Part shown: piece by piece, positions 10,197 to 13,100 of the stretch
Position numbering within the stretch: position 1 is the first letter of the stretch
Layout of the letters: every line of letters starts with the position of its first letter
NCBI RefSeq assembly: GCF_965641715.1
Contig: NZ_OZ282453.1
Direction: 5' to 3' (one strand)
Length of the DNA stretch: 64,000 nucleotides
Source: Escherichia coli
Lineage (GTDB): Bacteria > Pseudomonadota > Gammaproteobacteria > Enterobacterales > Enterobacteriaceae
Position numbers: made by a program

Positions 10197-13100
10197 TAAA
10201 TTTAATGCAGCATCTATCGCCGGTTACGATGCTTTGCTTAACGCAGCCTGAGCCTGTATATAAACTTGTCATTTCCTGATTTTGATATGCACATTCCAAC
10301 ATCAGAAGAAGGTTAAATTATGGATGACAAACCATTGCAGGCTCTGGCCAATAAACTCAAAACACCGGCTCAAGAAAGTCAGCGTAATGGCTTCTTCCGA
10401 CTGCAACAGGTGAAGAATAACCAGCCCCGCATTACCGGTATCCCCGTCAACCATCAGGGGCCCCAGCCTGACATCGCCTGAACATATTCCCCCACGCAAC
10501 CTGCCGCACTGGCGTAGCCCACACAATACGCGTTTCAGCCTGCTCAGTATCTGTAGTGGCGTTTCATCCGCCTGTAGCACCGGATGCATGAGCGATTTCT
10601 TATAGTTATTCCTTTGCTTAATAACGATTATTTCCGGGTCGTTCGCTCTCGTATTTTCTGTATTACGTCAGAGCTGCCTGGGCCGTAATACAGCATGTAC
10701 CAGACCCGACACGGCATTTCTGACCAAGGGAAACAGTCAACGATGAGTAGTTATATCAGCGCAAATGACGTCCTGTGGCACCTTTGCGGTGACCACATTC
10801 ACGTCTCCGGCGCTGCCAGAGGATATTTATTTCAAGGATACGTAGCATTATGGCCAGCATTAAAGACATCCGCCCATTCGCCCCCGGCATTCCCCCATCT
10901 TCCGTTAACCCAGGCGTACGACGCCCACCAGGGCAGTACTTCCTGCCGGTGGAACTCAAGAATGAAATTTTGCGGAACATGAAGTATATCGGCCCGCAAA
11001 TATTTAGCTGGGGTGATGACCACCGTCAGATCATTGACCTCAGTACCGCGGGCAAGGTGAAAATACATATGGTAGACAATACCATCATCATGTTGGAGCG
11101 CCTGAATCCGAATCCGCAACATAACGAGTTCATGATGGTCGCCGAATGGTGCCAATGGGCTATGGAGCGGGATGGTTTGCAAGAAAACCTGCAAAAAAAC
11201 CTGTACGAAATCCTGGAAGAAAACCAGCAAAACAAACAGTCAGAAATTCCCCAAGAAGACCTGAAAGAAAGTCTGGAAGAAATCAAGGAAGATATCCTGG
11301 AAGAAAACCTGCCAGCAAGCCGGATTGAAAACCGGGCAGAAGCATTGCGCAGAATGAAGGAATGTCTCATTACAAGACGGAGTATGCTCAATCTTAGCAA
11401 CCTTGGATTGACTTCACTCCCTGAAAATTTGCCTCCACATCTGATTGAATTTTATTGCAGTAAAAACGTGTTGACCGCGTTACCGAAGGTGATGCCAAAG
11501 TGGCTGCTGGTGCTTGACTGTACAGATAACGTCTTGATCTTGTTACCGAAGGTGCAGCCCTCAAAACTGATGGTACTGAAGTGCTATGACAACTGTATTA
11601 TCTGGCTGCCTGAGCTGTCGACTAACCTGAGAGTGATTAACTGTTCTGCAAACTTCTTGCAATTTTTACCGCCGTCGATGCCCCAGTACCTGTATAAACT
11701 ATCCTGTGCTGGCAACAATATCCACTCAATACCTGATGAGATGCTGGAGAACTTGACTCGCCTGAAGGTATTCGACTGTTCTAGTAACGATTTGATCTCT
11801 TCACCACGGCTGCCGCCCAAACTAATAATTTACTACTGTGGAGAAAACAAGTTTAAAACGGTACAGGTGCCGCAGCCCCAGAGCCTGAAGGTGTTTGACT
11901 GTAATGGTAACCCGTGGGACAAAGACAATTTACCGACGCTGCTCAAAGCCGTCGAGGGCCTGAAAAAACAGCAGGGCCTGAAGGACCTTTTGGGCTTTTT
12001 GCACAAGGAGGGCCAGATGAAGCTGGAGAAGCTGGAGAAGCTGGAGAAGCTGGAGGATCTGGATGACCTTATGGATCTGGAGCTCCTGGATGACCCGGTA
12101 CTCCTGGAGCGCGTGAAGGTACAGGAGGACCTGGAGCTCCTGAATCAGCAGTTGGGCCTGTTGAGTCTGGAAAGACAACAGGACTCGCAGCCTGTTAATC
12201 AACATTCTGAACATGAACCCGAATCTGCATCAAGGGTGAAGCGTGATTTATCTGAAGTCGATTCCGAGTCAACAATGAAGCGTAAGCGTTTTATGTAGAA
12301 CGCCTGTGCGGTGAGTTCAGGTTCCGGGGAAATAGTGTCCATCATTTTAATGGGCACTATCATGGGAAATGGCTCTGTCACATTAACAACTACAGTTGTT
12401 GCCCAGCCGGATGGATGTTTTTTTGCAACCAGAAGACGTTGCCTCCGATCCGGCTTACAACAAGTTACACCGTCACAACCGGGACGCGTAACGCCAGCGC
12501 GCACATCAACTCATAGCCCACCGTTCCGGCAGCGGCGGCGACATCATCAATTTTGATCTCCTTGCCCCACAGCTCAACCGGCGTACCAATACCCGCCTGC
12601 GGGCAAGGCGTTAAATCGACCGCCAGCATATCCATCGAAACTGTCCCCACCGTCATAGTGCGCACGCCGTCCACTAAAACAGGGGTACCGGTAGGCGCGT
12701 GGCGCGGATAACCGTCGGCGTATCCTGCGGCAACAATGCCGATTCGCTGCTCATCGCGCGCAGTATAACGACCGCCGTAGCCCACACGCTCGCCCGCTTT
12801 TAGCGTCTGGACACCAATAATCTCACTGCTTAGCGTCATCACCGGACGTAATCCGGTATTGGCGATATCACGCCACTGACCGGACGGCGAAGCGCCATAC
12901 AAAATAATGCCAGGCCGAACCCAGTCAAAATGCGCTTCCGGGTGCCACAGAGTCGCCGCCGAATTGGACAACGAACGCCGACACTCCAGCCCTTCCGCCG
13001 CCTGCTCAATACGCGCCATCGCGCCGGAAATTCCATCAGGATGTTCCGCCTCGGCAAAATGCGACATCAGGGTCATTTCGCCAACATTCGCCATTGCCCG

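Follow-up and report, generated by a model that had tools for sequence, protein, structure and literature searches.

What fills the DNA between cvrA and a downstream gene for a leucine-rich repeat (LRR) protein in Escherichia coli, and does it encode or regulate anything? The question is raised by a 64,000-nucleotide stretch of contig NZ_OZ282453.1 (RefSeq assembly GCF_965641715.1; hereafter the window), in which ldcA and cvrA are followed by a 650-bp gap, an LRR open reading frame (ORF) and, on the opposite strand, dadX and dadA. A preliminary description of this DNA placed an orphan 53-codon ORF in the gap, and proposed that it could be a decayed gene fragment, a chaperone remnant or the regulatory leader of an inserted gene. 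The analysis reported here leads to a simpler answer, namely that the interval is a mosaic scar of ordinary non-coding DNA, and neither a new gene nor a special regulatory device. The explanation as a whole, in which a relic of an IS256/IS1414-type insertion sequence (IS) is joined to the leader of the LRR gene within such a scar, is very probably correct. This kind of scar is already known, and the specific relic is unannotated as such in RefSeq.

An insertion sequence relic behind cvrA

When positions 10312-10850 were compared by blastn with 5426 complete E. coli genomes, a 46-bp segment (10312-10357) matched genes annotated as 'IS256 family transposase' at 89-91% identity. One of these genes starts MDDKQLQALANELAKNLKTPEDL and includes FEPQLVKKNQTRITGM, and the corresponding window ORF reads MDDKPLQALANKLKTP...FFRLQQVKNNQPRITGI. 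An intact 1314-bp copy on a Citrobacter plasmid (L011 608-1921) was used as the reference IS; its left repeat is GAGCCTGTACATATATTTGTGTAATTGCCT, the reverse complement of its right repeat is GAGCCTGTTTACCATTCTGTGTAAATGCCT, and its 402-residue transposase matches Pfam Transposase_mut at 2.6e-112. By blastn, window positions 10250-10357 align with reference positions 1-110 (83.6% identity, E 2e-26), and a second block, collinear with the first, pairs 10378-10441 with reference positions 317-380 (78%, E 6e-11). Comparison of the small ORF with the transposase by blastp gave two high-scoring segment pairs (E 8e-6 and 1e-5), which cover residues 1-25 and 77-103. Related copies carry the PGAP label 'IS256-like element IS1414 family', and identity to a bona fide IS1414 with an embedded astA/EAST1 frame, an element for which background is available (PMC12585946), is 78.5% and 72.9% for the two relic blocks.

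Judged from these alignments, 10250-10441 is the left end of an old IS256-family, IS1414-group element, a relic and not a functional or mobile member, and the 53-codon ORF is a truncated transposase frame, or pseudogene fragment. The relic shares with IS1414 and its kin (IS256 family, Mutator-type DDE transposases, PF00872) a left terminal inverted repeat that starts GAGCCTGT, the arrangement of 5′ untranslated region (UTR), ribosome-binding site (RBS) and ATG, and the recognisable transposase residues. It differs from them in retaining about 190 of ~1314 bp, in lacking the DDE domain, the astA region, the right repeat and a target duplication, and in its identity of 78-84% to the closest intact copies, which marks it as old. 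Of the features that define membership of the IS256 family, then, the left terminal inverted repeat is present, and the right one and the DDE transposase are not. The Mutator-type transposase (PF00872, ~400 residues) has not been kept, since Pfam finds nothing in the 53-residue ORF and only residues ~1-25 and 77-103 are recognisable. About 930 bp of the element have been lost, and with them the DDE catalytic domain and the right inverted repeat.

The rest of the element was sought at several scales. Past 10441 nothing IS-like was found in the interval by blastn against the reference IS, and no further match to this IS was found in the whole window by blastn or by tblastn with the full transposase. 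The right repeat and the reverse-complemented left repeat were also compared with 10442-10849 and 12299-12465, where the best matches were at shuffle level (37-188 of 500 shuffles scored as well). The proposal that the LRR gene was a passenger inside an IS-bounded unit is unsupported, because this right-end search did no better than shuffles.

These results change several statements of the preliminary description. Its coordinates and peptide for the 53-codon ORF were exact on translation and no tRNA lies in 8000-14000, as it had said, but its statement that no IS sequence is visible is refuted. Of its three options, 'decayed gene fragment' stands with an IS256-family transposase as the gene, and not a chaperone or effector. 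The opposite-strand ORFs that it mentioned are present, at 10302-10589 (95 residues) and 9958-10302 (114 residues, reaching into cvrA); the wording that the gap 'holds only' the 53-codon ORF is slightly too strong, since two further plus-strand ORFs occur (Table 1). Among 2000 Markov-1 sequences of the same composition, an ORF of at least 53 residues was found in 91% of random 650-mers and one of at least 95 residues in 23%; therefore, ORF length is no evidence of a gene. The translated search of 10200-10850 against effector and chaperone families that had been suggested matched no family in Pfam, NCBIfam or PHROGs, and with every interval ORF of at least 25-30 residues these collections gave nothing significant, the sole match at E<=1 being a PHROG of unknown function (E 0.073, non-significant). 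Rfam covariance models had no match at E<=1 on either strand of 9500-13000.

Table 1. Features of the cvrA-dadX region, in window coordinates unless another sequence is named.
Feature	Position	Strand	Remarks
cvrA	8463-10199		intact ORF, 578 residues; stop at 10199
cvrA 3′ flank	10200-10249	+	weak hairpin (GCATC...GATGC), then TTTGCTT; common to K-12 and O157:H7
Block absent from B2 E. coli	10211-12453		2.2 kb; a 42-bp REP-like hairpin takes its place in B2
Degenerate IS256-family (IS1414-group) left end	10250-10441	+	by blastn against the intact 1314-bp IS
Left inverted repeat of the relic	about 10250-10277	+	GAGCCTGTATATAAACTTGTCATTTCCT, aligns with the IS left repeat GAGCCTGTACATATATTTGTGTAATTGCCT
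Transposase 5′ UTR and RBS of the relic	to 10319	+	DNA upstream of the intact transposase ATG matches the window from 10250 on
53-codon ORF	10320-10481	+	transposase start codon and about 41 transposase-derived codons, 12 non-IS codons, stop
Transposase-derived codons	10320-10441	+	survive internal deletions
Variable, indel-ridden spacer	10442-10575		nucleotide diversity 0.062
Conserved proximal leader	10576-10849	+	274 bp; kept in 13/13 alleles; AAGGA 11 nt before the LRR ATG
Plus-strand ORF	10584-10688	+	34 residues
Plus-strand ORF	10695-10982	+	95 residues; overlaps the LRR start out of frame
LRR gene	10850-12298	+	482 residues; SlrP/SspH2-type LRR repeats, no NEL domain; E. coli and Shigella only
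LRR 3′ end surviving as a scar in K-12-type genomes	12228-12298	+	O157:H7 keeps 12189-12298
ymgM region	L003 1422-1625	antisense to cvrA	K-12-type cvrA-dadX intergenic region; counterpart of window about 10071-10256, with an inverted fragment of the IS in addition

Forms of the locus and the K-12 protein YmgM

Comparison across genomes places this relic in a longer history. In the B2 strain THO-003 the match to the window stops at 10207 and begins again only at 12459, and the spacing between cvrA and dadX is 56 bp in B2 strains, 64 bp in Salmonella, 105 bp in Citrobacter koseri and 107 bp in C. freundii. GC content is 0.43-0.53 in the 2.2-kb block and 0.53-0.59 in its flanks. Because B2 and the outgroups have short cvrA-dadX intergenic regions, and because the block has a lower GC content than its flanks, the 2.2-kb LRR block was acquired in non-B2 E. 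coli and eroded later. The repetitive extragenic palindromic (REP)-like hairpin of 42 bp in B2, CGCTGGATACGACGCTGGTCGCATCCAGCG (L008 2956-2997, THO-003), is not in the window; it sits between cvrA and dadX at the site of the LRR block, or of its scars, in other phylogroups. A REP-like element occupies the corresponding site in C. koseri.

The term 'inserted gene' in the preliminary description therefore holds by comparison with B2 E. coli, Salmonella and Citrobacter, in which cvrA and dadX are 56-107 bp apart, but K-12 is not an uninterrupted reference. In K-12 the similarity to the window breaks off at 10256 and picks up again at about 12228, and about 95 bp of an IS left end, inverted, lie in between. 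In O157:H7 the match ends at 10311 and starts again at 12189; the 1877 bp between these points are cleanly deleted, and the IS left end and the final 110 bp of the LRR gene remain. Since both keep the last 70-110 bp of the LRR gene, they are deletion derivatives and not empty sites. Over 10100-10256 identity to the window is 96% for K-12 and 99% for O157:H7; the idea that the interval might be identical to K-12 intergenic sequence applies only to 10200-10256 and fails for the remainder; in addition, 10250-10348 resembles a K-12 segment in inverted orientation (84%). Separate searches of the 5426 E. coli genomes, whose states need not be mutually exclusive, found the full block in 834, the K-12 type in about 3453, the B2-type junction in 1123 and the O157 junction in 145.

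These observations suggest an order of events. The IS would have arrived with the LRR block or soon after, between cvrA and dadX, and it was already degenerate in the common ancestor of all full alleles, because they share one relic structure. Later deletions around the IS stub would then have produced the K-12 and O157:H7 forms. The inverted IS fragment of K-12 is 98% identical to the present-day IS, but its identity to the window relic is only 84%, and in the flanks the difference is 3-4%; we infer that this fragment derives from a second, younger IS copy inserted in the LRR gene, and that a deletion at 7-10-bp microhomology (GAGCCTG) then removed everything between the two copies to give the K-12 form. 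None of the 5426 genomes has an intermediate with a full LRR gene and an intact inverted IS at about 12228, so sequence identity (98% against 84%) is the sole basis of the two-insertion model.

Two known patterns resemble what is seen here. As with IS relics at the borders of acquired islands, a truncated IS sits at the edge of a 2.2-kb block of lower GC content; it differs from them in that the stub starts 39 bp inside the block boundary defined by B2 and in that no second IS end was found. As with IS-associated adjacent deletions, several independent deletions start in or beside the stub, at 10311/10312 in O157:H7, ~10256 in K-12 and 10417 in alleles of the type represented by L007. The stub is a candidate trace of the vehicle that delivered the block.

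Some database records of the locus need care. A 2-kb contig of a 'Collinsella sp.' metagenome-assembled genome (L012, JAIJJM010000586.1) is 96-97% identical to the E. coli locus and looks like binning contamination; a scan of genome contigs with the LRR protein yielded this contig alone. Among matches in the plasmid collection PLSDB (NZ_CP134663.1, NZ_CP141089.1, NZ_CP031350.1), two 4.9-Mb records are evidently chromosomes, and a 187-kb 'plasmid' record carries this chromosomal locus with 100% identity to 10250-10445.

The K-12 form also accounts for a small protein. The 67-residue product of ymgM is listed among 'SPs detected in this study' after sequential peptide affinity (SPA) tagging (PMC6001520, Table 1), and convergent overlap of the ymgM and cvrA transcripts has been reported (PMC12288877). 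The YmgM frame (MDDKQLQAQAAFSKAS...) opens exactly at the ATG of the inverted IS fragment, L003 position 1625, and runs on into the 3′ end of cvrA in antisense, and no paper noting an IS origin of YmgM was found in the literature. The window ORF and ymgM lie in the same intergenic region, take their RBS and start codons from an IS (MDDKPLQA in the window, MDDKQLQA in YmgM) and continue into non-IS sequence. They differ in that the K-12 fragment is inverted, runs antisense into the cvrA 3′ end and stems from a separate, younger IS copy (98% against 84%), and the peptides share nothing past the first 8 residues. It is conceivable, though rather doubtful, that the decayed IS1414-group left end is a portable start module, with promoter, RBS and ATG, from which translated proto-genes have arisen at this one locus twice in opposite orientations, YmgM in K-12-type strains and the 26-53-residue peptide in strains with the full locus, and that it may add read-through transcription to the strain-variable LRR gene. 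In many RefSeq genomes PGAP marks cvrA as 'incomplete, missing C-terminus' and calls a hypothetical protein on the minus strand across the cvrA 3′ end (window about 10071-10260; L001, L002, L004, L008, L013, L014 and L018). These calls look like an annotation artefact spread from ymgM-like ORFs.

Leader, reading frame and selection

To ask what the parts of the interval do, alleles were aligned from the window and from L001, L002, L005-L007 and L012-L018 (13 in total). The spacer that follows the relic is unstable: L007-type alleles have lost 159 bp (10417-10575), 4 alleles have a 29-bp deletion and L013 has a 6-bp insertion. The proximal leader has a nucleotide diversity (pi) of 0.027, against 0.06-0.09 for the spacer and the LRR gene, and its predicted RNA folds somewhat better than shuffles (z = -2.24). 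A search for copies of 10442-10850 on plasmids and elsewhere in E. coli found this locus only. The proximal leader presumably holds the promoter and 5′ UTR of the LRR gene itself; the suggestion that the interval is the regulatory leader of the inserted gene is plausible for 10576-10849, which is conserved and found in every LRR-bearing allele, and not elsewhere. A 19-bp indel, ACTGATTCAGGTCTGTTAC, interrupts this otherwise conserved leader at 10692/10693 in L002, L013, L014 and L016, where it and the GTACCAGACC that follows form a hairpin. The window allele is without this indel and has a perfect 10-bp inverted repeat (10657-10666 / 10684-10693) instead; this repeat was considered as a conserved structure and set aside, because it is allele-specific and its left arm differs in most other alleles.

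A broader cis-regulatory role, in which the small ORF would serve as a leader peptide or upstream ORF, or the promoter of the LRR gene would come from the IS stub, is unlikely. In its favour, the small ORF and the LRR gene share a strand and no strong terminator separates them, IS left-end start signals work in K-12, and the proximal leader is conserved and somewhat structured. However, 368 nt separate the small-ORF stop from the LRR ATG, which makes translational coupling unlikely, and the stretch between them is full of indels, contains no conserved attenuator hairpin and, as noted, matches no Rfam model. In L007-type alleles the LRR ORF is retained although 10417-10575 is missing, and the motif TGATATGTT of the intact IS, which may be an extended -10 element, has become TGATATGCA in the window.

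Less probable still is a genuine small-protein gene, recruited from the transposase start, in which the 26 N-terminal residues or all 53 would be under selection. Several features might suggest one: the start region is conserved, an N-terminal block of ~31 residues is nearly invariant across database clusters, a good RBS (GAAGG) lies 7 nt ahead of the ATG, RefSeq lists the product as hypothetical protein WP_001312759.1, and YmgM, its analogue in K-12, can be detected as a protein. Polymorphism in the alleles argues otherwise. The ratio of nonsynonymous to synonymous polymorphism (pN/pS) is 0.61-0.67 for the small ORF and 0.01 for each of cvrA and dadX, and the same DNA gives 0.42 and 2.27 in the other frames of that strand and 0.46 on the opposite strand, so the value for the ORF is indistinguishable from those of other reading frames. 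Early stops, read-through and frameshifts are frequent: a TGA at codon 27 limits the ORF to 26 residues in 5 alleles, 6 have 53 residues and 2 have 65. In a collection of 5.8 billion proteins its homologues form 28 clusters, all from E. coli, of 29-86 residues and 71-98% identity, with frameshifted C-terminal halves. The natural 159-bp deletion takes the 3′ part of the ORF and leaves the LRR gene intact, and the ORF is restricted to one locus of one species with no family match. PGAP annotates the plus-strand ORF in some genomes and a minus-strand ORF in others, and the latter is unstable in length too (5-97 residues). The 53-codon ORF thus shows neither the purifying selection nor the stable length of a conserved small-protein gene. 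Its peptide is without protein-level selection, and we infer that it is functionless.

Some observations weigh against reading the interval as a relic plus a leader. The closest intact IS is only about 84% identical, and, without a right inverted repeat or the 8-9 bp target-site duplication of the family, the original extent of the element and its insertion event are not reconstructable. A scan for sigma-70 promoters and terminators found no promoter consensus in the leader and counts at shuffle level. In addition, conservation within the interval peaks in the 50 bp that hold the RBS, the ATG and the first 10 codons of the small ORF (pi 0.018), at least 26 codons are open in all 13 alleles, and both internal deletions seem in frame on BLAST alignments, although the DNA alignment in the middle is ambiguous; the conserved start, the 26 open codons and the in-frame deletions would also fit a short functional peptide or selected translation.

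On the preferred reading, a transposase pseudogene fragment, some transcription and translation of the stub probably continue, as a by-product without consequence, because its IS-derived start signals are intact and well conserved. The detection of YmgM shows that sequence placed behind the start signals of this IS family can be translated, so low-level translation of the window ORF is likely. That the ORF is left over from an effector-specific type III secretion chaperone, or from a second effector gene, would be suggested only by its position upstream of an SlrP/SspH2-type LRR gene. This reading is effectively refuted, since transposase homology accounts fully for the ORF sequence and no such family was matched in Pfam, NCBIfam or PHROGs.

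The LRR gene and the meaning of the scar

The protein encoded beyond the scar matches Pfam LRR_4 and, in part, the NCBIfam models of SlrP (1.6e-21) and SspH2 (1.6e-16), in each case the LRR part, and its homologues, 74-98% identical, come from E. coli and Shigella only. Like the LRR type III effectors of the SlrP/SspH/IpaH group, it contains LRR repeats of the same subtype; it differs in having an acidic LEKLEK-type C-terminal repeat in place of the NEL ubiquitin-ligase domain. There is no Pfam match to the NEL E3 ligase domain in the protein, and the effector models match over the LRR part only (76 bits against a cut-off of 1113). The gene was also considered as EspR1 and, on locus, rejected: EspR1 is Z2242 in OI-62, a different locus (PMC4060028).

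The LRR gene is highly variable in E. coli, with protein identity down to 74% and a pN/pS of 0.73 overall and 1.30 in the N-terminal third, values that do not distinguish relaxed from diversifying selection. It is broken by IS629 in IAI39 (L015) and has an internal stop in 14EC033 (L018). Many in-frame length variants of 437-486 residues exist. Two repeat regions occur in the gene (11166-11348 and 12010-12072), a 12-nt periodic tract of 11 copies that is rich in E, K and L, and a 9-nt repeat, GAAGCTGGA, that encodes LEKLEKLEK; these repeats are likely sources of the length variation.

What this analysis provides is the removal of a false lead and a corrected history. The orphan ORF, which is a 'hypothetical protein' in hundreds of RefSeq genomes, is a transposase pseudogene fragment, and no new mechanism is needed to explain the interval. 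The evolutionary reading of the locus changes as well, in that the LRR block is an old acquisition in non-B2 E. coli and the K-12 and O157:H7 regions are deletion scars of that block. Finally, YmgM can be traced to an IS start codon fused to antisense cvrA, a small and clean example of how IS debris can seed translated ORFs.

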